NCBI GenBank assembly: GCA_031316235.1
Contig: JALDRA010000001.1
Location: forward strand, 1,200,001 to 1,232,000
Direction of reading: 5' to 3'
Length of the DNA stretch: 32,000 nt
Source of the DNA: Candidatus Scalindua sp.
GTDB taxonomy: Bacteria; Planctomycetota; Brocadiia; Brocadiales; Scalinduaceae
A program made the position numbers and the translations under genes. The notes below the pieces were generated by a model. The model saw only the letters and a program-made list of their open reading frames with translations, was not told the DNA's origin and ran no database searches. Positions 189-30,487 of the stretch are shown here, in pieces. Each line of letters begins with the position of its first letter. Position 1 is the stretch's first letter.

Positions 189-2312
189 CTACAGAATCAT
201 ATCGGCTTCAGTCTCTTTCCCGGAAGTCTTTAACCTGAAATCTTCCACCTCTTTTGTGAGAGCATCCTTCACGCGTTCTATCACTCCTTCCCATCCATCC
301 CGATGTGTCTGCCGAAACAAGCGCATACCAGGGTACCACTGACTCTCTTCACGTTTCAACATCCAGCGCCAATCAGGTGAAAATGGCAGTAATGTCCATA
401 CCGGTTTGCCGAGGGCACCAGCCAGATGTGCAACTGCGGTATCTACCGAAATCACAAGATCAAGATTTTCAATAACGGCTGCGGTATCTGCAAAGTCATG
501 CAACTCTTTTTCCAGATTATGGATTGTCATATTTTCCGGTGGATGCAATGCTTCAGCAGCAGCTCTACCTTTTTGAAGTGAATAGAAGGTCAATTCTGAA
601 ATCTCAGCTAACGGGGAAAAATCATTCAGCGTACAAGAACGATTGGAATAGACATAATTACGGGATGGACCGCCTGCCCAGACAATCCCAGTTTTAAAAG
701 AATTTTTATTGCTGCATATATTACCCCATTCAGCTGAAAGTCCGGGATCAACCTGAATATACGGCCCCCTTGAAGGTATAGTATCCAGTGTTGTTCCAAA
801 GATCCCCGGTAAGCTGAGGAGAGGCACTTGAAAATCGAACATTTCTGACAGCTCACCGGAAGAGTTCCGTGCTAAAATTTTATCAATACCTTCACAGCGC
901 CTTAAGAGAGATACCAGAGCCGGCTGGCATTCAAAAACCACATATCCACCTCGCGACTGAATCATTGGAAGATACCGTACAAATTGAATTGTATCACCGA
1001 AACCCTGTTCTGAATGCACAAGTACAGTCCTCTTGTTGAGCAAGGAACCGTTCCATCGTGGCTTCGGAAAGTTTCTGGAATTGTAACGTTCAGTCCGTAA
1101 TCGCCATTCATACTCCGGCCACCCCTCTTGATAGTTTCCCGACAAGAGCAACGCAATTGATTTATTCAGATGTGCCATGGCAAAGTCTGGCTTGAGAGCG
1201 ATTGCACGGTTACTGCTCGCAACGGCCTCTGCAAGTTTTCCCTGCTCCTGCAGTGCAGCACCAAGATTGCTGTATGCCTCCGCATAGTCCGGTTTCAGGT
1301 TCAGTGCTTTCTGGTAATTCCCGATTGCCTCTTCCAGCCTCCCCTGTTCCTGCAGTGCAGTACCCAGATTACCGTAAACAACTGCATTATCAGGTTCGAT
1401 TCCCACAGCCCTCACATAGTGAGCTACGGCTTCATCATACCTGCCCTGCCTCTTAAATGCATTCGCCAGATTATTATATGCTGCTACATAGTCTGATCTC
1501 AACGCCAATGCTTTCTGGTAATTCCCGATTGCCTCTTCCAGTCTGCCCTGTTCCTGCAGTGCGTCACCAAGATTACAAAAGGCTTCAGCATAGCCAGGCT
1601 CCCGTATGACAGCCTGTCTATAGTTTTTGATTGCCTCATCAAGCCGGTGCTGAGCCTTCAGCACATTTCCAAGATTATTGTACATTTTCCCATGGTCTGG
1701 TTTGATTTCAAGAACTCTTCTATAGATGTCTATTGCCTCATCTAATCTCCCCAATTCCTGAAGTATTGCGCCAAGATTACCACAGATTCCAACATTATCA
1801 GGATCAAGGGTCATTGCCACCTGATAGCTTCTCACTGCTTCATCCAGCATGTTTTCCTCTCTCAACACATTTGCAAGATTGGTATGTATTTCGGCATCAT
1901 GGGGACTGAGCAGCAATGCCTTCCGGTAATTCTTTATCGCCTCGCCAGATTTGCCCATTTTTTTGAGTGTATTGGCAAGGTTGTAATACCCTTCAGCATA
2001 GTCTGGATCAAGTGTAATTGCTTTTTGATAGCTTACGGTTGCCTCATGAAGTCTCCCTAATCCTTGAAGTGAAGAGCCAAGATTACCGTGGGCCTTACTA
2101 TAATCCGGTCTAAGCGCAAGTGTTTTTCGTAACAAGACAGATGCTGCATCAAAATTGCCTGACTGAAGGTTCAGTGTGCCAAGGAGAAAGAGAGTTTCAA
2201 TGTGCCCAGGTTCGATTTCCAGTATCTTGCGGTACGAGTGTGCCGCCGTAACCAAATCTCCGGCCTGATGGTGCTCAAGAGCACTCTGGAATAAACGGTT
2301 AATGGTGTCCAT
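189..2312 (-). CDS. TPR-repeat protein with C-terminal GT9 (heptosyltransferase-like) glycosyltransferase domain
   Basis: 707-aa ORF. The N-terminal ~380 aa are back-to-back 34-residue TPR units (recurring P.YAEAY.NLG..L...G+L.EA...Y.+AL). The C-terminal ~320 aa carry EQGFGDTIQFVRYLP, PLLSLPGIFGTT, NRSC.L.DF.PL, FYSLQKG and DTAVAHLAGALGKPVW. The last block resembles the nucleotide-sugar-binding end of GT9 GT-B enzymes. The start overlaps the upstream paralogue's stop by 14 nt. Confidence 0.85.
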   Translation of the reverse strand: MDTINRLFQSALEHHQAGDLVTAAHSYRKILEIEPGHIETLFLLGTLNLQSGNFDAASVLLRKTLALRPDYSKAHGNLGSSLQGLGRLHEATVSYQKAITLDPDYAEGYYNLANTLKKMGKSGEAIKNYRKALLLSPHDAEIHTNLANVLREENMLDEAVRSYQVAMTLDPDNVGICGNLGAILQELGRLDEAIDIYRRVLEIKPDHGKMYNNLGNVLKAQHRLDEAIKNYRQAVIREPGYAEAFCNLGDALQEQGRLEEAIGNYQKALALRSDYVAAYNNLANAFKRQGRYDEAVAHYVRAVGIEPDNAVVYGNLGTALQEQGRLEEAIGNYQKALNLKPDYAEAYSNLGAALQEQGKLAEAVASSNRAIALKPDFAMAHLNKSIALLLSGNYQEGWPEYEWRLRTERYNSRNFPKPRWNGSLLNKRTVLVHSEQGFGDTIQFVRYLPMIQSRGGYVVFECQPALVSLLRRCEGIDKILARNSSGELSEMFDFQVPLLSLPGIFGTTLDTIPSRGPYIQVDPGLSAEWGNICSNKNSFKTGIVWAGGPSRNYVYSNRSCTLNDFSPLAEISELTFYSLQKGRAAAEALHPPENMTIHNLEKELHDFADTAAVIENLDLVISVDTAVAHLAGALGKPVWTLLPFSPDWRWMLKREESQWYPGMRLFRQTHRDGWEGVIERVKDALTKEVEDFRLKTSGKETEADMIL

Positions 2313-4185
2313 TCGTTTCTCTCTGAAGTTTGTCTTGGAGCAGAGCTGCTTTTACCTGATCAAATACGCTTGCCCAGTCATGTAACGCTGTCTGCCGGAA
2401 CAGCCGCATATCAGGATACCATGGGCTGTCATGCCGGTTTAAAAACCAACGCCAGTCGGGTATGTAATGCAGCAGTACCCATACCTCTTTGCCAATAGCT
2501 CCTGCAAGATGAACAACTGCAGTATCTGTGGAAATGATGAGGTCCAGGTTGGTAATTACGGCTGCTGTCTCAGCAAAATCATTCAGCCTGTTTTCCAGGT
2601 TGACGATCTTCATCCCTTCCGGTGGCTGGAGTGTCTCATCTGAAGCGTTACCCTTTTGAAGACTGTAAAATGTTATTCCAGGAATATCCGCTAACGGTGA
2701 AAAATCAGCGAGGGAACAGGATCGATTACGGTTTTTAAACTTCGGGTTTCCGGACCAGACAATGCCAATCTTGAAGTTATCATCACTGTCAAGGTACCTG
2801 CGCCACTCCTCCGCAGGTTCAGGATCGACAGTAATATAAGGAACTCCGGAGGGTATTGTATCGGTAGTAGTGCCGAAGATTCCCGGCAGGCTCAAGAGGG
2901 GAACCTGGAGATCAAAAGGTATAGCACCATTACTGCGGGACGTACGTTCTACAATATTGTCAATACCTCTGCAATCTTTAAGCAGTCGATAGAGGTTCTG
3001 CCTGCACTCGAATATCACATGTCCCCCCAGCGACTGAACCATGGGCAGGTAACGGACAAATTGAATAGTGTCACCAAAACCCTGTTCTGAATGCACAAAG
3101 ATGTGCCTGCCATTCAACCGTTCACCCTCCCATTGAGGTTGCTGGAAGTCCCTCAGTCTATGATCCCTTGTGAGCAGTCTCCATTCATACTCAGCCCAGC
3201 CTTCCTTAAATTTTTCAGTTAAAAGAAGCACCGTAGCCCTGTTTTTATGTGCCGTTACCTCATCAGGCATAAGTTCTATCGCATGATCATAACTTTCCAT
3301 CGCTTCATCCAGTTGCCCAAGTTCCTGAAGTGCTGAACCAAGATTGCTGTACGCCATTGCATAATCCGGCTTCAGCTCTATCGCATGATCATAACTTTCC
3401 ACCGCCTCGTCAAGCTGCCCAAGTTCCTGAAGCGCGGAACCGAGATTGTTATATGCCATTGCATAATCCGGCTTCAGCTCTATCGCATGATCATAACTTT
3501 CCACCGCCTCGTCAAGCTGCCCAAGTTCCTGAAGTGCGGAACCGTGATTGTTATATGCCATTGCATAATCCGGCTTCAGCTCTATCGCATGATCATAACT
3601 TTCCACCGCCTCGTCAAGCTGCCCAAGTTCCTGAAGTGTGGAACCGAGATTGTTATATGCCATTGCATAATCCGGCTTCAGTTTGATTGCCTGCTTCTGG
3701 CACACAATTGCCTTATCGAATTTACCCTGCGCTTTAAACACGTTGCCAAGACTATAATGAACCAGAGCACACTCAGGTTTAAGAGCTATTGCTTTTTGAA
3801 AGCTATCTGCCGCCTCTTCAAGATTTCCTTTTGCCTGGAAAGCTGTTCCAAGGTTGTAATAAGCCTCGTCGTAATCAGGTTTCAGTTCAATTGCGTATTT
3901 AAACCGCTCTATGGCTTCATCAAGTTTTCCTTGCCCCTTCAGTGCTGTACCTATATTGTTGTGTGCGGCAGTATGTTCGGGTTTCTGTGCTATTACCTGG
4001 AGGAGAAACATGGTCGCCGTATCGAGATGCCCCTGTTGGAGATTAAGCGTTCCAAGAAAAAAAATGGTGTCAAGGTGTCCCGGATGTCTTCTGAGTACCT
4101 CCTTATAGAAGCTTGCTGCGCAGACAAGTTTACCAGACTGATGGAGCTTCAATGCTTTTTTAAATAAAATCTTACTGTTTACCAT
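2299..4185 (-). CDS. TPR-repeat protein with C-terminal GT9-like glycosyltransferase domain
   Basis: 628-aa ORF with the same architecture and the same C-terminal blocks (SEQGFGDTIQFVRYLPMVQ, PLLSLPGIFGTT, DTAVVHLAGAIGKEVW). It contains four nearly identical consecutive TPR units (ELKPDYAMAYNNLGSALQELGQLDEAVESYDHAI). Confidence 0.85.
   Translation of the reverse strand: MVNSKILFKKALKLHQSGKLVCAASFYKEVLRRHPGHLDTIFFLGTLNLQQGHLDTATMFLLQVIAQKPEHTAAHNNIGTALKGQGKLDEAIERFKYAIELKPDYDEAYYNLGTAFQAKGNLEEAADSFQKAIALKPECALVHYSLGNVFKAQGKFDKAIVCQKQAIKLKPDYAMAYNNLGSTLQELGQLDEAVESYDHAIELKPDYAMAYNNHGSALQELGQLDEAVESYDHAIELKPDYAMAYNNLGSALQELGQLDEAVESYDHAIELKPDYAMAYSNLGSALQELGQLDEAMESYDHAIELMPDEVTAHKNRATVLLLTEKFKEGWAEYEWRLLTRDHRLRDFQQPQWEGERLNGRHIFVHSEQGFGDTIQFVRYLPMVQSLGGHVIFECRQNLYRLLKDCRGIDNIVERTSRSNGAIPFDLQVPLLSLPGIFGTTTDTIPSGVPYITVDPEPAEEWRRYLDSDDNFKIGIVWSGNPKFKNRNRSCSLADFSPLADIPGITFYSLQKGNASDETLQPPEGMKIVNLENRLNDFAETAAVITNLDLIISTDTAVVHLAGAIGKEVWVLLHYIPDWRWFLNRHDSPWYPDMRLFRQTALHDWASVFDQVKAALLQDKLQRETNGHH
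3277..3684. repeat. Intragenic tandem repeat, 4 x 102 bp (one TPR unit per repeat)
   Basis: The motif tatcgcatgatcataactttcca recurs at 3277, 3379, 3481 and 3583, an exact 102-bp period. By hand alignment, units 2-4 differ from each other at only 2-4 of 102 positions. Unit 1 differs at roughly ten positions. Confidence 0.9.
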
Positions 4186-4230: not shown

Positions 4231-5175
4231 TCAGTGAAATTCTTTGCTCCAGAAATCAATAAGCTCTCGCTGCTGTCTTTCAGAAGAATATTGAGCGGCC
4301 TTTGCCTGTGCTCCAGCCTTTATCTTTTCTACTGTTTTATCTTTCTTATTTATGAGACCAATTACGTGCCCCAGTGTTCTTGCACACTCGACAAGATTCC
4401 CCTCCTCACACCAGAACCCATTATCTCTGGATGCATATTCTAACCCCCCATCTCCATGAAAACCCACGACTACACAACCACATGCCATCGCCTCTATGGG
4501 AGGTAAACCCAACCCTTCGTAAATACTTGTCGAAAGAAATATTTCAGATTCACTTAGTATCTCCGCAACCTTCTCCTCATTCACGTTATCTATGCGGACC
4601 CAGGGTACCTGTTGATATTGTTTAAACAGAAAACGAAAGAGAGTCTTGATAAAATCCAGCTCTCCAGGCGTTTTTCTGGGCATATATGCTACCTGTAATT
4701 TTTTCTCACGCGGTTTGAAAATGTCTGAACACACCGCATTATGAATAACTGGAACTTCTCCGATTTCAAAAACTGACCGGATAAACCGGCTGATAATATC
4801 TGAACAGCAGAAGATCCTCGATATACCGTAGTCAGCCCACGATTTGCCATCTCTTATACCCTTGAAAATATAATAATGGTTCTGACAGAAGATATATTTT
4901 CTGGCCTGCACATCTCTGAATGCCCGAATTGCCGTTTTATTATCCTCAGGGATAACAACTATATCGTTTGGAGAAACCCGAAAACCGTTTTTAGCATAAA
5001 GTACCGGAACATTGGATTTCAACCAGGGAAGAGTAAAACCTTCATTAATATGAACTACAAATGAAGGAAACCCGTTCCTCACTAAATGGGAAACGTGCGA
5101 ATAGATCACTTTCACACCACCTGAAGGTTCAAGGCAATCGTGACAGATGTATAGGATTCTGCCGTTACTGTTCAT
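4231..5175 (-). CDS. Glycosyltransferase, GT-B fold, GT4/group-1 type
   Basis: 314-aa ORF. It has the N-terminal ILYICHD...PSGGVKV pattern and the C-terminal E-x7-E-type block LSTSIYEGLGLPPIEAMACGCVVVG typical of group-1 glycosyltransferases. It lies 45 nt upstream of, and co-directional with, the TPR/GT9 genes. Confidence 0.8.
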   Translation of the reverse strand: MNSNGRILYICHDCLEPSGGVKVIYSHVSHLVRNGFPSFVVHINEGFTLPWLKSNVPVLYAKNGFRVSPNDIVVIPEDNKTAIRAFRDVQARKYIFCQNHYYIFKGIRDGKSWADYGISRIFCCSDIISRFIRSVFEIGEVPVIHNAVCSDIFKPREKKLQVAYMPRKTPGELDFIKTLFRFLFKQYQQVPWVRIDNVNEEKVAEILSESEIFLSTSIYEGLGLPPIEAMACGCVVVGFHGDGGLEYASRDNGFWCEEGNLVECARTLGHVIGLINKKDKTVEKIKAGAQAKAAQYSSERQQRELIDFWSKEFH

Positions 5176-5407: not shown

Positions 5408-5860
5408 CTATTTCACAACGAACTGATTATAATTTTTAACGGGAAGCGTATCTAAATCCCGGTTATACAGTAACTGCAGTGTCCCTTCAAAGACCCCTCC
5501 TTTTTTTATCACGAATCTGCGACAGGATATTTTGCCACAAAATTTACCATCTTCTAAAATTTTCACGGTACCGGAAGAGGAGAGATGCCCTTTAAACTCG
5601 CCTCCAATGACAGCATTTCCAACAAATAATCGTGAGACTTCCAGCCGATGGTACTTCTCTAAATAGAAATCACTATGTTTTATCGGATCAGTATCTTTTC
5701 CCGGATCTACCCTCTTATAACTGAGATCAATCTGCCCTTTGCAGTGACGACACGGAAACGATACACAATGGCCTGGTACAGAAATGAGTCCCTGGCAATA
5801 TGGGCAGGAGATATCTTTTGCCCTTATATTGGCAGCAACAGGAGTCGCAAGATTATACAA
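5408..5860 (-). CDS. Small protein with N-terminal zinc ribbon and a C-terminal bactofilin-like (polymer-forming cytoskeletal) segment
   Basis: 150-aa ORF with a TTG start at 5860 and AAAGGGGA about 10 nt upstream. Two Cys pairs (CPYCQG...CRHCKG) suggest a Zn ribbon. The C-terminal half, VGNAVIGGEFKGHLSSSGTVKILEDGKFCGKISCRRFVIKKGGVFEGTL, has the short repetitive G-x-hydrophobic beta-helix rhythm of bactofilin domains. It covers only about 60 aa, so the family call is tentative. Confidence 0.45.
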   Translation of the reverse strand: MYNLATPVAANIRAKDISCPYCQGLISVPGHCVSFPCRHCKGQIDLSYKRVDPGKDTDPIKHSDFYLEKYHRLEVSRLFVGNAVIGGEFKGHLSSSGTVKILEDGKFCGKISCRRFVIKKGGVFEGTLQLLYNRDLDTLPVKNYNQFVVK

Positions 5861-5945
5861 ACTTCTGACATCCCCTTTCCTGAATTAAAAAAATACGCAA
5901 TAAGAGAAAACTCGTACGTTAACGGGAACACCGTAGACGAACGAA

Positions 5946-7013
5946 CTAAAACCTGAAAGGTATCAGGGACAGAAGTGTTTCTACAACTTTTCTGAAATAG
6001 GTATTCCTTACATACCTCCAATCTTCCCCATTATCCCGGTTTTCAGATGTTGAAAGATTATGGATAATAGGTAACCCTCGTAATCCTTTTTCCATATTCA
6101 TAGCGTGTGTCCTTCCCGAAGCCTCACCACCGGGCATAACATCTGTAGCAAGATCCAGCACAACCTGGGCGTTATCAAAAATCCTGGTTGTTGCCTTTCT
6201 GCCGATCTTATGATTTCCAATCGTAGCATCAGGTATCGTCTCCAGAGTATTTAATCCGGCAAACAAAAGATCCTCTCCCACATTGATCACACTTCTGGGT
6301 ACCCCCTTCACCACATCTCCCAGTATTGCATCTTTAAAGATTTTTCCAAAAAAATGTTTTATTCTTTCAATTCCACCTTGCGGAGCCACTTCACTTGCAG
6401 GAGTATAGGAGCCAAATGTTAATCCGCTTGCAATATTCTTAAAGAAATGCACCATGGTCTTCGCAAAACCGACCTTTCTCGCCTCTTTTATCTCTCCGCG
6501 ATTATTTACATAGTTAAATTTCGCGCCAATTCCAACATCTTTAGCTGCATTCAAAAGATTTCCACCCGCATCCTTTAAATCCTTCCCTACCCTTTTCGCA
6601 AACGAACTATGGTCAAAATTGTTGCTGACCACACCGGTAGTCTTGTCAATGAAGTAATCGTCTCCACCTGGATTTGATAGCAACTGGTCCTCCTTGTAAA
6701 TCTTATACTGCTGGAGAACTGCTGACTTTGGAAGTTTTCCTATCCCCTTAGGTGATACATATGTTTCCGGATATTGATTCGCCGTGGTTTTCTCTGAAGG
6801 TCTTACCCCGTCTCCTTCCGGCTGAAATATCATCATTTTCTGTTTTTGCCGGTTAAACTGCTTTATACCTTTTAACTCATTATTAAGAAATATATCAAAC
6901 TGATGCAGATCTGCTCTCTCCAGAGTCTCACGGTTTGTTACGGTATTCTTATTAATTGTATTGGGAGATCGTTTGACAGAAACCTTTGAGTTACTCATAT
7001 CTGGAGTATCCAT
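5946..7013 (-). CDS. Hypothetical protein, no recognisable domain (orphan)
   Basis: Long stop-free frame. The track starts it at TTG 7031. I prefer ATG 7013 (MDTPDMSNSK...), and ATG 6998 is also possible. None of these has a convincing SD. There is no signal peptide or TM segment by eye. The N-terminal ~100 aa are polar and low-complexity, and the rest is G/K/D-rich. It sits 85 nt upstream of, and co-directional with, 5408-5860. Confidence 0.6.
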   Translation of the reverse strand: MDTPDMSNSKVSVKRSPNTINKNTVTNRETLERADLHQFDIFLNNELKGIKQFNRQKQKMMIFQPEGDGVRPSEKTTANQYPETYVSPKGIGKLPKSAVLQQYKIYKEDQLLSNPGGDDYFIDKTTGVVSNNFDHSSFAKRVGKDLKDAGGNLLNAAKDVGIGAKFNYVNNRGEIKEARKVGFAKTMVHFFKNIASGLTFGSYTPASEVAPQGGIERIKHFFGKIFKDAILGDVVKGVPRSVINVGEDLLFAGLNTLETIPDATIGNHKIGRKATTRIFDNAQVVLDLATDVMPGGEASGRTHAMNMEKGLRGLPIIHNLSTSENRDNGEDWRYVRNTYFRKVVETLLSLIPFRF

Positions 7014-7031
7014 AGTGCAAGAAACTCGCAA

Positions 7032-7599
7032 AAGAAATACCTAACTGAAAAAAATCGATTAGAGAAGAAAAACAAGCACCTAAGTATCTATAAATTCTAT
7101 CTTTACAACAGCACAACCTTATTTAGCCAACTTGAAACCATAAAGAGTACAACTTTTAAAATGTAGAAAAAAACAACTTGTATCAGGAAAAAGCTTACCT
7201 ATAAAAGAATCGTGAACTCAGCACAAACAGACAACAACACGTTTGCTTTTTAGCAGAAACTCATCCTCACATCGTCAAAACAGAATCAATAAAAATAAAT
7301 ACTATTTTTGTAAAAAATAAGTAAAAAAGCTTGATTTATCATTACAAGTATATAAAATGTATACTTTTTGAAGTCCATTTCTTTCCATAGAAACACCCTG
7401 ATACGTTAAAATTTACGACACACAAGTTTTTTAAAACGTTGTTTTCTTATTGAAAATGATAATTGCTTTTCAAGTTACCTGCCTCCATTTTTACAAAAGA
7501 AACTAGTTTCTACAAAATAACCTTGTTGATTCTGTACGTAAAAAAGCAAAAAACTTCTTCTGTTATCAGTAAATTAAACCTCTTTAAGGTGTGAATTGT
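7032..7599. promoter_or_regulatory. Unusually long, very AT-rich divergent intergenic region (putative shared promoter/regulatory region)
   Basis: About 560 bp with no credible ORF and many A/T tracts, lying between divergently oriented genes (7013 minus, 7600 plus). I could not place a convincing -35/-10 pair by eye, so only the region is called. Confidence 0.4.
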
Positions 7600-8367
7600 A
7601 TGGCAAATCGCAACAGCAAAAAAAAGTCGGGCAGTAATCTTCAGAGTTTTCTCAAAAAAAATTCGTCACAGCTTCAACACGCTGGAAGACAAAGAGAACA
7701 GGCTGAAAAAGAGATAACGTTAAAGAAAAAAAGGCGTCTTGAAAAAAAAACATTGTTAGATTCCGTAATGAAAAAACCAGCGGAAACTGCTGGCTCCATT
7801 GCGATACAGAATTTTGTTGAAACCTTTTCAAATGCTGATACCACTTTGAAAGAAACAACATTCAGGAAAACCAGTAATGAAGAAAAGGATACCCTGGTAG
7901 ACTTTCTTGAGATGAAATCATCACGACAAACACAGATTTTTCAAGAACGTGCCCACGCTGAACCGGAACATGAGAAGCTTCCTGCTGTAAAGAGCCAACC
8001 GACTGGAAAACCATTTGATGACTCAGAAAAAGAGCAGTCTGAAATAAAGGAGAGTCTAAAGAAATGGATTCAGGAACTCATGAATAAGACCCTGGAAGAG
8101 CAGAAGAAGTGGACAAAAGGCGCGATTACCGATATCAAAAAAGAACTGATCCTGAGTGAAAAAAATCAAAAGAAAATAATGAATGAGTTGATAAAAGGTG
8201 TTGTGGAAGAATATATGCAGCCTGTCAAAAATTCGAAGATTGCGGGTTCGGAAAGGGGGGTAACGAAGAGCGAAGAGGAACCAAAAAGGTCGGTTATCAG
8301 GAAGAACGTAAAGAAATCGGTACCACAAGTGGAAAAAGAGAAGATCGCAAAAAACCAACAACATTGA
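7600..8367 (+). CDS. Highly charged K/E-rich low-complexity protein, probably disordered or coiled-coil
   Basis: The track starts at GTG 7591. I prefer ATG 7600, with AAGGTG at 7586-7591. By hand count there are about 44 K and 32 E in 255 aa. The N-terminus is basic (NSKKKSG, LKKKRRLEKK) and there are no TM segments. It ends 58 nt before the actin-like gene on the same strand. Confidence 0.7.
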   Translation: MANRNSKKKSGSNLQSFLKKNSSQLQHAGRQREQAEKEITLKKKRRLEKKTLLDSVMKKPAETAGSIAIQNFVETFSNADTTLKETTFRKTSNEEKDTLVDFLEMKSSRQTQIFQERAHAEPEHEKLPAVKSQPTGKPFDDSEKEQSEIKESLKKWIQELMNKTLEEQKKWTKGAITDIKKELILSEKNQKKIMNELIKGVVEEYMQPVKNSKIAGSERGVTKSEEEPKRSVIRKNVKKSVPQVEKEKIAKNQQH

Positions 8368-8425
8368 GTAAAAAAGTGCGCTAAAAAAGAAAAAGAGATA
8401 ACCCCTTACGTGGAGGAATTTAGTC

Positions 8426-9475
8426 ATGACAAAAGCTCAAAGCACATCAGAATCAAACTTTATCGTTGGAATAGATCTGGGAACATCACGTTCCGCTATT
8501 GTTACAGAAAACGGGGTAAAGGGAGTAGTAGAATCTATCGTTGGATGGCCGCAGGATATTATTGGTCTCAAGGTGCTGGGAAACTCTATTGCAATTGGTG
8601 ACACCGCACTGGAATTTCGAGAATTCCTGGAGATCAGTTATCCATTGGCAAACGGAGTTATCAAAGAAGGGGTTAAGAGGGACGTTGAAGCCGCTGATGA
8701 ACTTATTAAATATATCCTTTCCCTGGCAGAAATTCCCGAGAAAAAGAAAATATGCGGGATCGTTGGGGTTCCAGCCAAAGCCTCTCTGCAAAGCAAACAA
8801 GTCTTATTGAATCTAACAAAGAAGCATATGAGCCAGGTAACACTCATCAGTGAACCATTCGCTATCGCCTATAGAGAAGAAAGACTGAATAATTCAATTA
8901 TCATTGATCTTGGGGCCGGTACAATAAATTTTTGTACTATGAAAGGAAGAATCCCTGATGAGAACAGCCAGGTCTCCCTGGAAAAAGCAGGAAATTATGT
9001 TGATACCATCTTGTTTGATGCTTTGAAGCGCAAATTTCCTGATGCTCAACTGACCCTGAATATTGTAAAAAAATTCAAAGAAAAACATGGTACCATACTA
9101 AGCGGTGGTGGTAATATCATGGTTGAACTCCGAATGCATGGCAAACCGCAGACTCTCGATATTACTGAGGAAATGATCAACGCCTGTTCGACATTTGTAC
9201 CCAACATGATTGAGGAAATCAAAAAACTGGTCGTCAGCTTTGACCCAGAATCCCAGGAGGAGGCCATGAAAAATATCATACTGGCAGGCGGTATGAGCAA
9301 AATAAAAGGATATGATTCCGTGATCAAAGAAGCTTTATCTGATTATGGGGATGCACAGGTTCACGCTTTAGAAGATCCTTTATATGCAGTTGCTGAAGGC
9401 GCTTTAAAGATTGGAACCGATATACCGGTAAAATACTGGTCCCAGTTAGGTGAAACAGTCGCTGTGGGAAAATAA
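8426..9475 (+). CDS. Actin-like ATPase of the MamK family (MamK-like filament protein)
   Basis: 349 aa, with GGAGG at 8412-8416, 9 nt before the ATG. Actin-fold motifs are present: VGIDLGTSRSA (phosphate 1), GVPAKAS, ISEPFAIAY, IIIDLGAGTINF (phosphate 2) and ILAGGMSKIKG (adenosine). Block-by-block it resembles my recollection of Magnetospirillum MamK: SIVGWPQDIIGLKVLG vs VVGYPKDVIGLKLLG, ISYPLANGV vs IRYPLQDGV, EKAGNYVD vs TKAGNYVD, PVKYWSQLGE vs PPQYWRQLGD. Confidence 0.8.
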   Translation: MTKAQSTSESNFIVGIDLGTSRSAIVTENGVKGVVESIVGWPQDIIGLKVLGNSIAIGDTALEFREFLEISYPLANGVIKEGVKRDVEAADELIKYILSLAEIPEKKKICGIVGVPAKASLQSKQVLLNLTKKHMSQVTLISEPFAIAYREERLNNSIIIDLGAGTINFCTMKGRIPDENSQVSLEKAGNYVDTILFDALKRKFPDAQLTLNIVKKFKEKHGTILSGGGNIMVELRMHGKPQTLDITEEMINACSTFVPNMIEEIKKLVVSFDPESQEEAMKNIILAGGMSKIKGYDSVIKEALSDYGDAQVHALEDPLYAVAEGALKIGTDIPVKYWSQLGETVAVGK

Positions 9476-9535: not shown

Positions 9536-11503
9536 TTACAGGAGACCATGTAATCTCCTCCTCACCTGTCGAAATACTCCCAGCCAGTCTTTGGGGTGAG
9601 AATGACGAAATAACCGCATAGTTGGATACCAGGGGCTTCCATCCCGGTCTTGCAGCCAGCGCCAGGCTGGTGCAAATGGCAACAGGTTCCAAACAGGTTT
9701 GCCCATTGCCCCTGCTAAGTGGACGATTACTGTATCGATTGATATAACAAGGTCAAGGTTGGCAATCACTGCTGCCGTATCAACAAAGTCTCTGAGTTCT
9801 CTTTCCAGGTTAACGATATCCATACCCTCTGGAATAGTAGATGCTTCCGCTGCAGCTGCCCCTTTTTGAAGTGTGTAAAAAGTTATATTCGGGATGTCTC
9901 TCAGGATGGCAAAATCCTGTAATGAGCAGGAGCGGTTGCGGTCGTTTGCATTCCTGGGGTTGCCAGACCATGCAATACCAATTCTGAGGTTATTATTCCT
10001 GCCAAGCCTCATACCCCATTTCATGCGAAGGGCAGCATCAACCTTGATATAGGGTATATCAGCAGGTACGGTTTCAAGGGTAGTTCCATAAATTCCCGGC
10101 AGACTTAAGAGGGAAATGTGAACATCAAATGGCACAGAAGGTTTACAGGTCGGAACATATTCTACAAACTCGTCAATCCCTGAACAGCCGCTTAATAATC
10201 GAATGAGCTCTTTCTGGCACTCGAGAATAACCCGGCCGCCCCGTTCCTTCACCATGGGCAGATAGCGTGCAAACTGGATCGTATCACCGAATCCCTGCTC
10301 CACATGTATCAATATTGATCTGCCATTAAGGGGTAAGCCATCCCACAAGGGTTTTCCCAGTGTCTTGGGAATATGTTCACGTATCTGAAGCCTCCACTCA
10401 TACTCCTGCCAGCCATCTTTAAAATTCCCTGCCAGGAGGAGTGCAAGTGAGTTATTCATGTGTGCCAGTGCATAATCAGATTTCAGTGATATCGCCTTTT
10501 TATAACTTTTTATCGCCTCGTCAAGACTCCCTGTTTCCTGAAGAGAAGTGCCGAGATTATTGTGTGCTTCTGCGTAGTCAGGGCTGACCTCGATTGCCCG
10601 ATTACAGCTCTCTATCGATGTATCCAGTTTGCCAAGTTCCCTCCATACCGTACCAAGATTGCTGTAGGCCATAGCGTAGTCTGGTTTAAGTTCTATCGCC
10701 AGATTATAACTGGCCACAGCTTTATGAAGTTCTTTCTTTTCGAGAAATACCGTACCAAGATTATTATGGGCCTCTGCATAATCAGGTTTTAAAGTTATAG
10801 CATTACGATAACACTCTTCCGCCTCGTCAAATCTTCCCAGTCTCTTCAATACTGTCCCGAGATTATTTTGGAGGACCTCATTGTCCGGTTCGAGTTGCTT
10901 TGCCTTCAGGCTGCTCTTTAACGCTTCGTTTAAGAGCCCAGATTCCTGAAAAGCCATGCCAAGGTTACTGTGTGCCAGTGCATAATCCGGTTTGAGGTCC
11001 AATGCACTGCGATAGCAGAAGATTGCATCATCCATCCGCCCCATTTTGTGAAATACTGCTCCGAGATTACAATGTAATTCTGCACTATCCGGATTGTATC
11101 TCATCGCATACCGGTAACTTATAACGGCATTACCGAATTTTCCCTGTTCCCGATAGATATCCCCTAAGTTACTACGGACTTTTGGATCCTCTGGTATTAA
11201 GAGACACGCACGATGATAACACTCCTCAGCTTTTTCCAGTTGTCCCAGCTCTTGAAGTGCAGTACCAAGATTATTATACGCCATTGCATGATCAGGCTTT
11301 AGTGCCAGAACATTTCTCAGTAATTGACAGGCCGTCTCAATATCATGTTGCTGGAGATGGAGTGTACCTAAGAGAAAGAGTGCATCAATGTTTTCAGATT
11401 GCTTTTCTAATATAGCCTTATACGAAGCTGCCGCCGATTCAAGGTTTCCCGTCTGATGCTGCTGTATGGCACCCTCAATCAAGTTTATTACCGGAGTATT
11501 CAT
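9536..11503 (-). CDS. TPR-repeat protein with C-terminal GT9-like glycosyltransferase domain
   Basis: 655-aa ORF. It has a TPR array followed by VEQGFGDTIQFARYLPMVK, SLLSLPGIYGTT, NRSCSLQDF, FYTLQKG and DTVIVHLAGAMGKPVW. Its start lies 4 nt after the stop of the upstream paralogue. Confidence 0.85.
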   Translation of the reverse strand: MNTPVINLIEGAIQQHQTGNLESAAASYKAILEKQSENIDALFLLGTLHLQQHDIETACQLLRNVLALKPDHAMAYNNLGTALQELGQLEKAEECYHRACLLIPEDPKVRSNLGDIYREQGKFGNAVISYRYAMRYNPDSAELHCNLGAVFHKMGRMDDAIFCYRSALDLKPDYALAHSNLGMAFQESGLLNEALKSSLKAKQLEPDNEVLQNNLGTVLKRLGRFDEAEECYRNAITLKPDYAEAHNNLGTVFLEKKELHKAVASYNLAIELKPDYAMAYSNLGTVWRELGKLDTSIESCNRAIEVSPDYAEAHNNLGTSLQETGSLDEAIKSYKKAISLKSDYALAHMNNSLALLLAGNFKDGWQEYEWRLQIREHIPKTLGKPLWDGLPLNGRSILIHVEQGFGDTIQFARYLPMVKERGGRVILECQKELIRLLSGCSGIDEFVEYVPTCKPSVPFDVHISLLSLPGIYGTTLETVPADIPYIKVDAALRMKWGMRLGRNNNLRIGIAWSGNPRNANDRNRSCSLQDFAILRDIPNITFYTLQKGAAAAEASTIPEGMDIVNLERELRDFVDTAAVIANLDLVISIDTVIVHLAGAMGKPVWNLLPFAPAWRWLQDRDGSPWYPTMRLFRHSHPKDWLGVFRQVRRRLHGLL

Positions 11504-16982: not shown

Positions 16983-18104
16983 TTAAGACTGAAGGCAAAC
17001 TGCAGCATTTTCTTCAACAGCATCTTCCCTTTTAATAGAACAGCTTGACAACCCTACCAGTACCGAATCAATCAGGTAACCAAACTTATAGTTGTTGCCA
17101 GGCACAAGGTCAAGTGAGAGCGTATGGTCTCCGTTTCTCTCTTTTTTCATGGGATTACAGTGTGAATTCCAATTGTTAAAATCACCGACAATATAGACAC
17201 TCATTGCCTTTGAAGCCGCAAACCTCGGCAGTCTGAACGTTACCCTGCGCAACATTTCTTTTTGTGAAAACAGTCCTGCCTGATCGTACCCTTCCTCAGC
17301 CCGATCTGTAATCCTCTCACTACAACTGCTTACCATTTCAGTGTGCTCATCACCTATGACCACATCCTGAGCAATTCCATTTGTACCAGCGTCCCTTTCT
17401 GACATTGTCTCAGAGTGAGTATTTCTCATCTCGATATTTTTGATAGTTTTTTCACGATCTTCCTTTTTACTGAGAATACCGGAACACCCCTGACAGAATA
17501 ATTTCCCATAATGTTCCCTTGCAGAACCTGTTGCTGTATCTCTGGTAGAGATGCTTTTATTACAGCTGCAACACACCTTCATTTCTGCGAGATCTTCCTG
17601 TTGCAGACCTGAAGTGTTTTCCTGTAATGGTTCTGCAGCTACGTCACGTCTTTTCATAAAATTAACCATTTTCACGAATTTATAAAAAGAGAAATTCTTT
17701 TTTTTCGATTTCCTGCTTAAGATTTCTTCGATAGTCACCTTTAGCTCTTCCTTACTTTCTGCACTGATCTCTATAAACTCTATTGCAGTACAGTACCCTG
17801 AAAGATGCTGGCGTTCTTCAATCCGAACTATCCTCCCTACACAGCTTATGTGAGGCATGGATTGAGTAATTCCAAATTTAACATGTAAAATTGAATCAAT
17901 TCCCAGGTCCTTATAATAGGTAAAAACCATGCCACCTGCGCTCAGATTCTTTACGGCAACTATATCCCATTCAGGAGACCGGTTATCGTTGTCTTTGGAT
18001 TGCCTGGTATGAAACCTTGCTATACAGGGGGTTTCAATTTCTTTATATTTTCTGTTTTCCAGTTCTATTCTTGCATATTTCCTTTTTTCGGGAAGACTGT
18101 ACAT
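16983..18104 (-). CDS. PilZ-domain protein with central Cys-rich (Zn-ribbon-like) region and C-terminal CBM48/AMPK-beta-type carbohydrate-binding domain
   Basis: The PilZ signature pair is present: RKYAR (RxxxR) near the N-terminus and NLSAGG (D/NxSxxG) about 50 aa later. The central region reads CCSC...CQGC. The C-terminus, VYIVGDFNNWNSH...LSLDLVPGNNYKFGYLID, matches the glycogen-binding-domain pattern V+..G.FNNW...L..G.+.YKF.VDG. Confidence 0.75.
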   Translation of the reverse strand: MYSLPEKRKYARIELENRKYKEIETPCIARFHTRQSKDNDNRSPEWDIVAVKNLSAGGMVFTYYKDLGIDSILHVKFGITQSMPHISCVGRIVRIEERQHLSGYCTAIEFIEISAESKEELKVTIEEILSRKSKKKNFSFYKFVKMVNFMKRRDVAAEPLQENTSGLQQEDLAEMKVCCSCNKSISTRDTATGSAREHYGKLFCQGCSGILSKKEDREKTIKNIEMRNTHSETMSERDAGTNGIAQDVVIGDEHTEMVSSCSERITDRAEEGYDQAGLFSQKEMLRRVTFRLPRFAASKAMSVYIVGDFNNWNSHCNPMKKERNGDHTLSLDLVPGNNYKFGYLIDSVLVGLSSCSIKREDAVEENAAVCLQS

Positions 18105-25736: not shown

Positions 25737-26179
25737 TATGCAGTGTCTCTGAATAAACTACTTTTTTATACTAATTGTAAACGTTGATAGGTTCTGAGTT
25801 CACCGTTCTCTGTTACCTTCCTTTGTCAATTGCCGAGACCTCGTCGAAAATCCAGAATTCCGGCACGTCCGACCAAATTGCTTAGGCAATTCACAAAATC
25901 TCCCCTCGTCCTTCAATAGTTAATCCAATATCTTTAATTCTCACACAATCTTCTTCAAACAACAAAGGACCAGTAACAGCCTATCAGGGCCATGACAAAT
26001 GGCAAGCAATAGCGATAATTACTAATCAAAGTTTGATGCCATTCTTTTTTATTTGTCAGTTCAAGAACTTATGGTAAAATTACGGTGAAACATGTTCTCT
26101 TCGCGTCTTGTCGCCTCCATGGCAAATTCATTTTGGATGCAGCTACTTTGCACTGCGATTTAAAAGGAGTTTTATCACC

Positions 26180-26728
26180 ATGACAACTATTATTGAAAAG
26201 AAAAAGTATACTTATGAAGATTATCTTAAAGCCCCTGAGGACAAGAAATACGAGCTTATAGAAGGAGAGCTGATTATGGCGCCGTCGCCTATACCAAAAC
26301 ATCAAAGAATCTCTGGAAAGATTGAATATGAACTAAGAAAATTTGTAACAGAAAACAAACTCGGAGAGGTTTTTGATGCGCCATGCGATGTATATCTTGA
26401 TGAAGAGAATGTAGTTCAGCCTGATATTCTGTTCATTTCGAAAGAGAGATTAGATATTATAGGTGAAAAAAATATACAGGGAGCGCCCGACCTTGCAATA
26501 GAGATAATCTCAGAAAGCAGCGCTTACAGAGATATGGTACAGAAAAAGAAACTTTATGCTGTTTTTGGTGTAAAAGAATACTGGATAGTGATTCCGGAAG
26601 AAGAATCAATAGAGATATTTATCTTGAAAGATAAGACTTGCCAGTTTTATAATAAATACGCCAAAGATGATACACTTCAGTCCCCTCGGATGAAAGACCT
26701 AAACATTGCGCTAAAAGGAATATTCTAA
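26180..26728 (+). CDS. Uma2-family (DUF820) putative endonuclease
   Basis: I prefer ATG 26180, with AAGGAG at 26164-26169, over the track start 26108. The sequence YTYEDYLKAPEDKKYELIEGELIMAPSP...HQRISGKI...VQPDILFISKER...GAPDLAIEIIS is the characteristic Uma2 layout, including the D...(D/E)xK-like PD-(D/E)XK residues. Confidence 0.8.
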   Translation: MTTIIEKKKYTYEDYLKAPEDKKYELIEGELIMAPSPIPKHQRISGKIEYELRKFVTENKLGEVFDAPCDVYLDEENVVQPDILFISKERLDIIGEKNIQGAPDLAIEIISESSAYRDMVQKKKLYAVFGVKEYWIVIPEEESIEIFILKDKTCQFYNKYAKDDTLQSPRMKDLNIALKGIF

Positions 26729-27214: not shown

Positions 27215-29203
27215 CTATTTTATATAAATAGTAATTGCCTCCCATTTCCGGCCGATGATTTTGCCTGTCTTCAGTAAAAATACATCGGCTTTTAATTTCG
27301 CCTTGCCAGGAGCAGCATCAACCGGAATGCCGGCTTTGTCAAAAACTAAATAGTGGTGCCCGGGTTTAACCCTCTTCCAGTGTCTACCGAGAAGAAAAAC
27401 GTTCTTTTCACTATCGATCAATCGGTATAAATGTTTCAGACCATACTCATTATCATCCGGGTCTGATACAGTGTACATATCGTGAATGATTAATCCATCA
27501 CCAGTATTAAATTCACCTGTAAATTGTCCTCCAAATTCAGCACTCCACATCTGATCAAGCACCACTTTGCCTTTGAGAATATTCGAGATGATTTTATCCT
27601 TAGACCCGAACTCTACTGCACCAATATCACAAACAACTATTCCGTCATTATTTCCATCTACCGGCCGGATTCTCCCAAGCTGATCATCTCCAGGGCATGC
27701 AGCTTCATCAGCAGCATCTATAGCTGGACTATCTGACAGCAAGGGAATATGTCCATAGCCTGGAGTCCCGTCATCGATAAATTTTCCTAAACGTGGATCT
27801 CCGGTAATATCGCTCTCTAAAAGAATAGTGCATAGCCCAGCACCAATAATATTATTGCCAAGTGAAGTTAAGGTGCCTTCACAATTGGACGGTTTCCGAT
27901 CACCGTCAGACAATATATTCTCTGCAAGGATACTGTTTTTCAAATTCACCGTACCTGTGTACCAGTTAAATATTCCACCCGGCCCATGGTCTGCTGAATT
28001 GTAAGCTAGCGTGCTGTTGACAATGTTCATTGAGCCATAATTTTCAATTGCACCTCCTTCGGTGCTAGAATGATTTTGAGCAATAGTACTATTCGTAATT
28101 AATACCGTATCATCGTTTAAAATCCCACCACCTGATTCGCTAGAGTTGGAAGAAATAGTACTACTCATGATCTCCACCTTCCCACTACTGTTATGAATAC
28201 CTCCACCAAGAAATCCGCGATTTCGGGCAATAGTGCTACTTGTAACAGATATCGTACCAGTATAATTATAGATGCCACCCCCGGTTTGATATGATGAATA
28301 CTCTGCATCATTTTTTTCAATAATACTGTTCGTAAGAGTAACGAGGCCTCCTTCGTTAAAAATACCTCCCCCATCACCGTCTTCTGCTAATAATGAATTG
28401 TTAGAGACAGTTGTGCTGGTGAGAGTAACTGAGCCTCCTTTGCTATAGATCCCACCACCATCTCCCCTACCATACCCATCATAAACTCCCACTGCATTAT
28501 CAGAGATAGTTCCATTTGTGACAGTAACGGTACCGCCATCATTATAGATACCACCGCCTTTTGTATTGAAACTAGAGGAATCTTCATATCCTAAGGATTG
28601 GTTGGTCTCCACTGTGCTATTTTCGATAGTAATGTCCCCGGTATTAAAAATACCACCTCCATTACCTGCTGTGTTAGTTGAGACAGTACTGTTTCTCATT
28701 GTAACGGCTCCGGCGTTGTACAACCCTCCACCGTTAAAGGTTTCGGTTTGCTCATGAGTAACACGAAAAGGAGCAATACCACCCTGAATAGTCAAACTCT
28801 CTAACTGTATATTCCCTGTATTTGCAACATGGAAGATACGAAAGAGAGGTATATGTGGAGAATCTATATTCCTCTCTATGATTGTTGAATTGTCAGTTAC
28901 ACCGTTGAGTGAAATGTTGCTTGTAATGGATGGCAGGCCATTGGGACCATTGATATCATTGTTCTTTTGAGTCAGGGAGTAGATCCCACCCTGCAAGTTA
29001 ATTGTATCGTCTTCACCGTTCCCGTTTGCGGTATTAATTGCATCAATAAGGGCTGCAACATCGCCTGATGGTATGGTAAATTCTGCTGCGTTAACAGCAA
29101 CAATACGAAGATGACAGAAAATATGCAGAGCTAATAACATACTTAAGACTATCTTAAACATCCGTGTTGTGCGTTCTGTTTTCGTGTTATCTGCTATGTT
29201 CAT
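27215..29203 (-). CDS. Secreted right-handed parallel beta-helix repeat protein (Pmp-like / choice-of-anchor-Q-like) with a C-terminal domain of unknown function
   Basis: 662 aa, with AAGGA 8 nt upstream of ATG 29203. It has a signal-peptide-like segment, MFKIVLSMLLALHIFCHLRIVAVNA. There are more than 12 iterations of GGGI(Y/F)N.G.(V/I)T(L/V).NST(I/V)..N. The repeat region ends in CDIGAVEF. The last ~125 aa have no motif I recognise. Confidence 0.75.
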   Translation of the reverse strand: MNIADNTKTERTTRMFKIVLSMLLALHIFCHLRIVAVNAAEFTIPSGDVAALIDAINTANGNGEDDTINLQGGIYSLTQKNNDINGPNGLPSITSNISLNGVTDNSTIIERNIDSPHIPLFRIFHVANTGNIQLESLTIQGGIAPFRVTHEQTETFNGGGLYNAGAVTMRNSTVSTNTAGNGGGIFNTGDITIENSTVETNQSLGYEDSSSFNTKGGGIYNDGGTVTVTNGTISDNAVGVYDGYGRGDGGGIYSKGGSVTLTSTTVSNNSLLAEDGDGGGIFNEGGLVTLTNSIIEKNDAEYSSYQTGGGIYNYTGTISVTSSTIARNRGFLGGGIHNSSGKVEIMSSTISSNSSESGGGILNDDTVLITNSTIAQNHSSTEGGAIENYGSMNIVNSTLAYNSADHGPGGIFNWYTGTVNLKNSILAENILSDGDRKPSNCEGTLTSLGNNIIGAGLCTILLESDITGDPRLGKFIDDGTPGYGHIPLLSDSPAIDAADEAACPGDDQLGRIRPVDGNNDGIVVCDIGAVEFGSKDKIISNILKGKVVLDQMWSAEFGGQFTGEFNTGDGLIIHDMYTVSDPDDNEYGLKHLYRLIDSEKNVFLLGRHWKRVKPGHHYLVFDKAGIPVDAAPGKAKLKADVFLLKTGKIIGRKWEAITIYIK

Positions 29204-29245: not shown

Positions 29246-30487
29246 TCAGTAAAATCTGTGGGTAATTGGAGGCTCTGGTAATTTTCCAAGTGTATGATAT
29301 AAAGCAATTTCTATTGATTTTAAAGTACGAAAACCAAACGATCTTCTCATAGTCAGTTTAGCTTTAAGATTAAAACCTTCAACAATACTATTAGATAGAC
29401 GCTCTTTGACAGAAAAATAATTTAACAAAAGCTCCTGGTGCTTGCGTAACCGCTTGGCCACTTTCTTCATTTCAGGTAACCTTGATCTCATTGCCCTGGT
29501 TGTCCAGGTTCTTAAGAACCTCTCGGCACCCCAACGTGTTTTGTAAGTCCAGAAGTGTTGAAATGCTTCTTTAAGTAAATAGCAACGAACCGTCTTTAGA
29601 TTATATTGAACCAGTTCACGGAGTCTGGCTAACTGTGATGTCTTCTGGTTCCTTTTATTCTTTAATAAACACCAACGAGACTTTTCAAGGATTGGCTCAT
29701 AACCATCTTGTTTTAACTGAGCAGTCTCAGCTCTTCTTGTTTGATCTACAGCATCGTTAAGATATTTCATCACATGAAAGCGATCGAGAATATGGATAGC
29801 CTTCGGAGCTTTACGTTTTACAACCTTTAAATATGGTTTCCAAAGATCACTGCAAATTGCCTTTAGCTGTTGGGATCGTTCTTTACCAAAGAAATGAAAG
29901 AATCGCAACAATGTCTTAGCCGATCTGTTCTGGCCGACAAATAACAATCTTTTACAAACTGAGTCTATTTGGAAAACCAATGTCAGATACTTGTGATATT
30001 TTAAATATTGTATCTCGTCAATACCTAGTGCGTTAACATTATCTAAGTTGCGATGCTTTAATCCGTATTCAACAACATGTTCTACCGATTCAAATACGTT
30101 TTTCCATGAAACACGAAATTGCCTGGCCACTTCTAGCCAGGAAAGGTACTTTGCCCAATGTGCAAGAAATATCCTGAACGGTTCACTAATTGGACTCTTC
30201 CCCTGGGCCCAAGGAATATGTTCTACGGTCACCCCATGCTGGGGGCAGCTTACGCGCCGGGGTCTATAAGCCAACATAACTATGTAACCCCACAAAGGAA
30301 CAAAACGAAAACATCGTTCCTGTAGATGATCATAAGTTGGGGCTGCCTTTTTGCACTGGCTACATATGCCTTGTGATCCTTTGCGTTCTTTTACTTTTAC
30401 CGTAATCCTGGTTTCTTTTAAAATAACTTTGCCGTAGATGAATCCCTTGACAGGATAACATCTATTGAGTAACGTTTTAATGAGCAT
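29246..30487 (-). CDS. ISL3-family transposase
   Basis: 413 aa. It has the N-terminal zinc-finger layout C..C(18)...RRVSCPQHG, a helix-turn-helix region (WLEVARQFRVSWKNV), then ALGIDEIQYLKYHKYLTLV and a C-terminal DDE region ending SNSIVEGFNLKAK. This matches the ISL3 (IS204/IS1001/IS1096/IS1165) transposase organisation. Confidence 0.8.
   Translation of the reverse strand: MLIKTLLNRCYPVKGFIYGKVILKETRITVKVKERKGSQGICSQCKKAAPTYDHLQERCFRFVPLWGYIVMLAYRPRRVSCPQHGVTVEHIPWAQGKSPISEPFRIFLAHWAKYLSWLEVARQFRVSWKNVFESVEHVVEYGLKHRNLDNVNALGIDEIQYLKYHKYLTLVFQIDSVCKRLLFVGQNRSAKTLLRFFHFFGKERSQQLKAICSDLWKPYLKVVKRKAPKAIHILDRFHVMKYLNDAVDQTRRAETAQLKQDGYEPILEKSRWCLLKNKRNQKTSQLARLRELVQYNLKTVRCYLLKEAFQHFWTYKTRWGAERFLRTWTTRAMRSRLPEMKKVAKRLRKHQELLLNYFSVKERLSNSIVEGFNLKAKLTMRRSFGFRTLKSIEIALYHTLGKLPEPPITHRFY

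Follow-up and report, generated by a model that had tools for sequence, protein, structure and literature searches.

A MamK-family actin gene and its upstream partner gene in Candidatus Scalindua, probably captured from a magnetosome gene cluster

The DNA analysed in this study is a stretch of 32,000 nucleotides (the window) from Candidatus Scalindua sp. (assembly GCA_031316235.1, contig JALDRA010000001.1, positions 1,200,001 to 1,232,000 of the forward strand), and it is chromosomal DNA of a marine anaerobic ammonium-oxidising (anammox) planctomycete. The region of interest contained four genes, here named A, B, C, and D, arranged in two divergent pairs, with B and A on the minus strand and C and D on the plus strand. 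An earlier reading of the bare sequence (the original prediction) had described four open reading frames (ORFs) around an AT-rich spacer of ~560 bp as a candidate cytoskeletal module. The arrangement was present as described, with a spacer of 559-586 bp and a GC content of ~0.33 against 0.40-0.47 in the surrounding DNA. The coordinates of the features are shown in Table 1.

Table 1. Features of the Scalindua locus (positions in the window) and genes upstream of mamK in Nitrospinota-type loci (positions in each locus)
Feature	Position	Strand	Description
A	5408-5860	-	150 aa; Zn-ribbon and half bactofilin domain; 85 bp downstream of B, same strand
B	5946-7013	-	~355 aa; conserved protein family without assigned function
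B-proximal spacer half	7014-7329	none	AT-rich, poorly conserved
Sigma-70-like promoter for C-D	7330-7360	+	TTGATT-N16/17-TATAAAAT; listed at 7331-7358 by the promoter scan
Leader ahead of C	7361-7599	+	~240 nt; conserved among Scalindua genomes
C	7600-8367	+	255 aa, K/E-rich; directly 5' of mamK (MamJ position)
C-D gap	8368-8425	+	58 nt; carries a GGAGG ribosome-binding site
D	8426-9475	+	349 aa; MamK-family actin-like ATPase
Gene upstream of mamK, L010	3338-4282		
Gene upstream of mamK, L012	435-1328		
Gene upstream of mamK, L093	6833-7783		
Gene upstream of mamK, L096	4851-5744		
Gene upstream of mamK, L097	864-1832		

Two of the gene starts were revised by comparison with orthologues. The ORF of C opens at 7591, but translation almost certainly begins at the ATG at 7600, the start used by every orthologue. 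The longest ORF of B spans 5946-7031 (361 aa), the orthologues point to a start at 7013 (355 aa), and the NCBI call is 350 aa. A, C, and D, together with eleven Nitrospinota Mam proteins, were used as tblastn queries against all fetched loci. A, C, and D adjoined B in six genomes only (the window, AMX11, SCAELEC01, CBDCUS01, RBC_AMX3, and GCA_024449855), and a seventh lineage carried the block on a 4.7-kb JGI contig. The locus sits on Scalindua contigs of 2.3-4.1 Mb and is therefore not a binning artefact. Against four orthologous loci, the ratio of nonsynonymous to synonymous substitutions (dN/dS) was 0.05-0.41 for the four genes, well under 1 (D, 0.05-0.11; A, 0.15-0.41; B, 0.18-0.27; and C, 0.31-0.40). 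All four genes are thus under purifying selection, and none of them is a chance ORF.

The original prediction had called D a MamK-like actin as opposed to an MreB, FtsA, or ParM, and the profile, alignment, and tree results agreed with this. D scored 424.5 bits against the NCBIfam MamK model NF040964 (cut-off 400), its orthologues scored 421-426, and the MamKs of Nitrospinota magnetosome clusters scored 412-413. The scores for other actin models were far under their cut-offs, with 63.8 of 293 bits for MreB, 49.9 of 366 for mreB TIGR00904, 20.9 of 176 for FtsA, and 194.9 of 530 for BeeR, and ParM was missing from the list of NCBIfam families matched by D. The Magnetospirillum MamK structure PDB 5ljw matched D without gaps over residues 3-344 on 3-344 (E 7e-86). 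D keeps the motifs DLGTS, SEPF (E143), and DxGAGT (D161), and its length and ATPase residues were intact in all six genomes. In MamK, ATPase activity and filament dynamics need D161 and E143, and MamJ stimulates the dynamics (PMC5059902). D was also the most constrained gene of the region (81-91% amino acid identity). Judged by its sequence, D is a bona fide MamK-family actin, for which family membership would predict a role as a dynamic filament.

Among the best 120 hits of D, proteins with at least 70% identity came only from a few Scalindua metagenome-assembled genomes (MAGs) and unbinned contigs, and no protein of Kuenenia, Brocadia, or other Scalindua was present. Beyond Scalindua, the identity fell to 52-57% and then to ~45% for the MamKs of Magnetococcales, Desulfobulbaceae, and Gammaproteobacteria. 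All the loci inspected in the 52-57% group (6 of 6) belonged to canonical magnetosome clusters, in which the genes ran mamI, mamE, a gene of ~300 aa without annotation, mamK, mamF/mmsF, small ORFs, mamM, mamN, mamO, and mamP, and the longer contigs added mamA, mamQ, mamR, and mamB. Two members of the group are named Nitrospinae/Nitrospinota, and the clusters match those of Nitrospinota, described by Lin et al. as Proteobacteria-like and mmsF-containing (PMC7602337). A metagenome scan with the MamK alignment gave one useful locus, L093. An unrooted neighbour-joining (NJ) tree, which also took in MamKs of Magnetococcales, Azospirillaceae, and Desulfobulbaceae, showed the Scalindua clade with 99% bootstrap support and the grouping of Scalindua with the Nitrospinota magnetosome-cluster MamKs with 100%.

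C showed no match to any Pfam or NCBIfam family. A HMMER search of 1.84 billion representatives gave four matches, namely C itself and three orthologues, which mark C as a true lineage-restricted gene. The protein evolves fast (44-58% identity), and its conserved islands are N/DFLKxKS...LKKKR..EKK..LLDS (aa 17-55), DFLE (aa 101-104), and W-x14-W (aa 156-181). In the six genomes C ends 58 nt ahead of D, and this conserved gap with its GGAGG supports predicted co-transcription of the pair. The organisation resembles that of MamK with MamJ/LimJ, both in the actin itself (curated profile, gapless alignment to solved structures, ATPase residues, and phylogeny) and in the small charged gene immediately upstream of it, as mamJ is, whereas the host here is an anammox planctomycete. 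An actin-fold ATPase beside a small partner gene is also found in the ParMR and Alp7AR operons, and AlfA-type systems were compared as well. Unlike the ParM, AlfA, and Alp7A partition systems, the Scalindua locus is chromosomal and has no plasmid genes, and no centromere-like repeats were noted in the spacer.

In five Nitrospinota-type loci (Table 1), the gene upstream of mamK, of ~300 aa and on the same strand, occupies the position that C has in Scalindua. The proteins of this family have an N-terminal DFLExK, ALLDSM repeats, and a Gly/Val-rich hydrophobic C-terminus; they matched no Pfam or NCBIfam family, and they are a candidate functional analogue of MamJ. BLASTP of C against these proteins showed a short motif only. 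A hidden Markov model (HMM) of the N-terminus of C was run on 7,106 decoy ORFs, and 4 of the 5 Nitrospinota proteins ranked sixth or better among its non-self hits; in the reciprocal search the top non-self hit of the Nitrospinota N-terminal HMM was a C orthologue (E 0.0066, 7,106 ORFs). The short N-terminal motifs DFLExK and LLDS(M/V) of C are also seen in the proteins at this position of the Nitrospinota mamAB-type clusters. Of the 7,106 ORFs, 7 contained both of the patterns [DNSE]FL[EKA]x[KR] and LL[DES]S[MV], and each of these belonged to the C family or the Nitrospinota MamJ-position family. The two families differ at the other end of the protein. The Gly/Val-rich hydrophobic C-terminus was found in 5 of 5 Nitrospinota proteins and in none of the C orthologues, which carry instead the W-x14-W amphipathic island and a Lys-rich tail, and C is net basic (net charge +16) rather than acidic. 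On this comparison, it is moderately likely that C descends from a MamJ-position gene, with its filament-side motifs kept and its cargo side replaced.

The non-coding DNA on either side of C was unexpectedly more conserved than the coding sequences beside it. Positions 7300-7599 showed 89-90% nucleotide identity to the loci L013 (SCAELEC01) and L014, against 73-74% for the coding sequence of C and 85-87% for that of D (dS 0.6-0.9). The C-D gap demonstrated 93-96% identity to the same two loci, and the B-proximal half of the spacer 69-75% over partial lengths. The promoter block was near-invariant in five genomes. The scan for promoters and terminators as a whole was not enriched over shuffled sequences (15 against 9.7±3.4). 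The conserved leader matched no Rfam family, and a structured RNA in it was rejected as unsupported (folding z -0.42 against shuffles, a weak consensus fold, and a covariation term of -0.38). A candidate anti-Shine-Dalgarno pairing in the leader was invariant and therefore uninformative. It seems more probable that the region is regulatory and binds a protein than that it forms a structured RNA.

As a separate observation, the spacer of SCAELEC01 contained a relatively GC-rich insertion of ~115 nt at ~9545-9660 of its locus, just upstream of the conserved promoter block. The insertion was not present in the other four genomes (alignment columns ~318-434), and it could be a small mobile element.

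The conservation of genes and promoter bears on whether C-D is still in use. The pair could be a decaying and now functionless remnant of a magnetosome cluster that the lineage first acquired and later lost, and the fast evolution of C and the absence of the hydrophobic C-terminus of its presumed ancestors would fit such a history. This is nevertheless highly improbable, given the low dN/dS of D with its length and ATPase residues intact in every genome, the dN/dS of C with its motifs conserved, and a promoter and leader more conserved than synonymous sites.

The original prediction had also listed the usual partners as absent, and none of them was found: Pfam showed no mreCD, ftsZ/ftsA, parR-like, or mam gene among the window ORFs of at least 150 aa. 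Specifically, no mamA, B, E, I, M, O, P, or Q was found with Pfam in the 32-kb window, and the eleven Nitrospinota Mam proteins gave no tblastn match at any Scalindua locus fetched (within 20 kb in five other genomes). The Scalindua locus thus differs from mamAB-type clusters in that MamI, E, F, M, N, O, P, A, Q, and B genes are not nearby. The statement that magnetosome genes are absent stood for the neighbourhood but needs amending for the actin itself, since its sister clade consists of MamKs inside magnetosome clusters.

In Magnetospirillum magneticum, a second mamK-like gene lies outside the main cluster. By analogy, C-D could be an auxiliary mamK-like islet of a magnetotactic Scalindua with a full magnetosome cluster elsewhere, and the position of D as sister to magnetosome-cluster MamKs would agree with this. 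Magnetotactic Planctomycetota do exist (PMC7449369, PMC7602337), but those in Uzun et al. have ~49% GC, and the word Brocadia is not in the text of that paper (PMC7449369). With no mam gene within 32 kb here or 20 kb in the five other genomes, and no link between Scalindua and magnetosome genes in the literature searched, such an islet is very unlikely. If it were true, these Scalindua would be magnetotactic anammox bacteria, a still more remarkable outcome. Searches of the literature on anammox bacteria or Scalindua gave nothing relevant on MamK, actin-like, or bactofilin genes. Uzun et al. used MamK as a search marker for magnetosome clusters, and by their report the MamK clades contained no homologues other than Mam proteins (PMC7449369). 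MamK hits on scaffolds without other mam genes were dropped in that study (PMC7449369), and a locus like that of Scalindua would therefore have been discarded.

As the sister clade of D consists of MamKs within canonical clusters, the preferred reading of C-D is a fragment captured from a magnetosome cluster and not an orphan system that arose de novo. The pair is probably a two-gene operon of a MamK-type actin and a MamJ-position partner, captured from a Nitrospinota-type magnetosome cluster and kept without nearby magnetosome machinery. Several points weigh against this. The direction of transfer from Nitrospinota to Scalindua would follow from distribution only and from a tree that is unrooted. 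The hhalign comparison of C with the Nitrospinota MamJ-position proteins was weak (P 0.037, probability 1.4%, 36 N-terminal residues), and both shared motifs were picked post hoc, after inspection of both families. The search for mam genes covered only ~20-32 kb around each copy. Finally, the identical phyletic pattern of A, C, and D would fit a larger functional unit equally well.

Under the capture from a Nitrospinota-type cluster, an ancestor of one Scalindua subclade would have acquired C-D from a magnetosome gene cluster of the kind found in magnetotactic Nitrospinota, and strong purifying selection would then have maintained the pair. Like MamK, D would form dynamic filaments in an ATP-dependent manner. 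C would bind or regulate the filament via the N-terminal DFLE/LLDS motifs that it has in common with the Nitrospinota upstream-of-mamK proteins, would have lost their Gly-rich hydrophobic and presumably magnetosome-side C-terminus, and with its basic tail and Trp-containing amphipathic segment may retarget the filament to a non-magnetosome cargo. B would be a resident conserved gene, and the lineage-specific A may have arisen or arrived in the same subclade, so that the B-A pair could be a participant in the C-D system or a mere neighbour. The binding of C to D, the filaments of D, and the switch of cargo are proposals that come from sequence comparison.

Anammox bacteria have a membrane-bound organelle, the anammoxosome, with iron-rich particles. 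One anammox lineage may have co-opted the magnetosome-positioning actin with a rebuilt adaptor, possibly together with A and B, for positioning or partitioning a non-magnetic cargo, which could be the anammoxosome, the iron particles within it, or the machinery for envelope glycosylation whose genes surround the locus; this more specific proposal, cargo options included, is considered unlikely. If it were true, machinery that positions one bacterial organelle would have passed by horizontal transfer to an unrelated one.

Of the known systems, MamK with MamJ comes nearest, and the locus is regarded as a variant of it, with the actin and its putative adaptor kept by an anammox bacterium and no magnetosome cluster nearby. 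Earlier work took MamK to be a specific marker of magnetosome gene clusters (PMC7449369), and the Scalindua locus is a clear counter-example. On the proposed history, the filament-plus-adaptor part of the magnetosome system can transfer and persist alone, and the locus would offer a natural experiment in the retargeting of a bacterial actin by adaptor proteins. The motifs that C has in common with the MamJ-position proteins of Nitrospinota are candidates for binding MamK. SCAELEC01 and AMX11 are enrichment-derived Scalindua MAGs, so transcriptomics and cryo-tomography may be feasible. The finding is a surprise for research on MamK and on the cell biology of anammox bacteria; the pair occurs in one subclade only.

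A, the protein for which the original prediction proposed a Zn-ribbon and a bactofilin-like part, scored 35.5 bits against the Pfam Bactofilin model PF04519 (DUF583; cut-off 27.9, E 1.2e-8). The match placed aa 78-128 on profile positions 47-97 of 98, which falls short of a complete bactofilin domain. The N-terminus carries CxxC...CxxC with C19, C22, C37, and C40 invariant, and a beta segment covers aa ~73-131. Six homologues were found among 5.8 billion clusters, all in the Scalindua subclade, and all six (6 of 6) carry a precomputed PF04519 hit. An AlphaFold2 model built from 6 sequences (mean predicted local distance difference test, pLDDT, 51) was all-beta over 63-130. Foldseek of this low-confidence model against the PDB showed nothing below E 3.5, and the A-family profile matched no solved bactofilin among the PDB sequences. 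A resembles bactofilins such as BacA and CcmA in matching the C-terminal half of PF04519 above the cut-off, with an all-beta low-confidence model there, and differs from them in covering ~51 of 98 profile positions, in its N-terminal Zn-ribbon, and in having no sequence-profile match to solved bactofilins. The confidence of the model is too low for a beta-helix to be confirmed. On its profile match the label bactofilin-like is acceptable for A, and the earlier call holds for half a domain.

B had been described, like C, as an orphan. The description suits C, which has no relatives outside the clade, but not B, for which 166 homologues (E<=0.001) were found in 80 species-level genomes. The family has 58 invariant columns across 42 sequences and contains the motifs YKEDQLLSNPGGD, PDATIGN, and YVRNT. 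A scan of species representatives showed it in Scalindua, Kuenenia, Brocadia, Anammoxibacter, Wunengus, Desulfobacterota, Omnitrophota, and Latescibacterota, and it was present in every anammox genus sampled. No Pfam, NCBIfam, or PDB relative was found in member-wise Pfam scans and in a search of the family profile against PDB sequences, and the AlphaFold2 model (42 sequences, pLDDT 48) was rejected as too poor. In most Scalindua, B lies beside a che cluster, and in Brocadiaceae it adjoins three genes, for a 580-aa protein, a dCache protein, and a 300-aa protein; elsewhere its neighbours vary. When the neighbourhoods of 85 B loci were clustered, no gene accompanied B across phyla; the neighbours were either specific to a clade or carried promiscuous signalling domains. 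The B family is strongly conserved, entirely uncharacterised, and common to all anammox genera and several anaerobic phyla.

The question of whether the four genes belong together was examined in the genomes that carry the block. The conserved order in the subclade, flanks included, was TPRGT4-TPRGT3-D-C / B-A-(GT4)-TPRGT2-TPRGT1. A, C, and D were confined to one small Scalindua subclade and represent a single evolutionary event, and ~75 other B loci showed no A, C, or D within 10 kb. Block integrity was rejected as evidence for a module: the flanking TPR-GT genes were equally syntenic, and shared ancestry therefore explains the integrity of the block, so that linkage is not evidence of function. 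The co-conservation proposed by the original prediction was thus found in part, with the four genes together in at least five other genomes but not as a broad module, as B stands alone in ~75 genomes. Of the outcomes that the prediction had named as contrary to it, the opposites were observed, namely co-localisation in related genomes, grouping of the actin apart from MreB, FtsA, and ParM, and profile support for the bactofilin call.

The distribution also bears on the idea that A to D form one cytoskeletal module, in which the MamK filament would work with a bactofilin-like polymer and two accessory proteins, all under one shared divergent control region, to position a single cargo. The identical and very narrow distributions of A, C, and D, always adjoining B in the same arrangement, are consistent with it, as are the maintenance of this arrangement over dS 0.5-1.7 and the placement of B, which moved here only in the clade with A, C, and D, the other Scalindua having B by the che cluster. 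Such a module is nonetheless rather doubtful, because all occurrences come from a single event in an ancestor, synteny is just as strong for the TPR-GT flanks as for the block, B occurs alone in so many other genomes, the spacer is conserved only in its C-proximal half, and A has half a bactofilin domain without structural confirmation.

The flanking minus-strand genes encode TPR proteins, and their C-terminal halves gave weak GT9 matches (25.1 and 22.4 bits against a cut-off of 22). The original prediction had described a uniform run of TPR and GT9 paralogues; the TPR proteins with weak GT9 matches are there, but a GT4 gene at 4231-5175 interrupts the run. The remaining genes of the window encode glycan-synthesis enzymes, a PilZ protein, Usp, Uma2, and an ISL3 transposase. 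The TPR-GT9 protein at 2299-4185 (minus strand) contains three or four near-identical consecutive TPR units of 34 aa (…DEAVESYDHAIELKPDYAMAYNNxGSALQELGQL…), which points to a recent event within the paralogue array, either internal duplication or gene conversion. The ISL3-family transposase (29246-30487) adjoins an ORF of 662 aa at 27215-29203 with no Pfam match and a Uma2-family endonuclease gene (26108-26728), and a further ORF without family lies at 31226-31930. The gene at 16983-18104 (minus strand), inside the glycan-synthesis gene set, encodes a PilZ domain and a CBM48/AMPK glycogen-binding module in one protein, which may be a c-di-GMP-responsive polysaccharide regulator.

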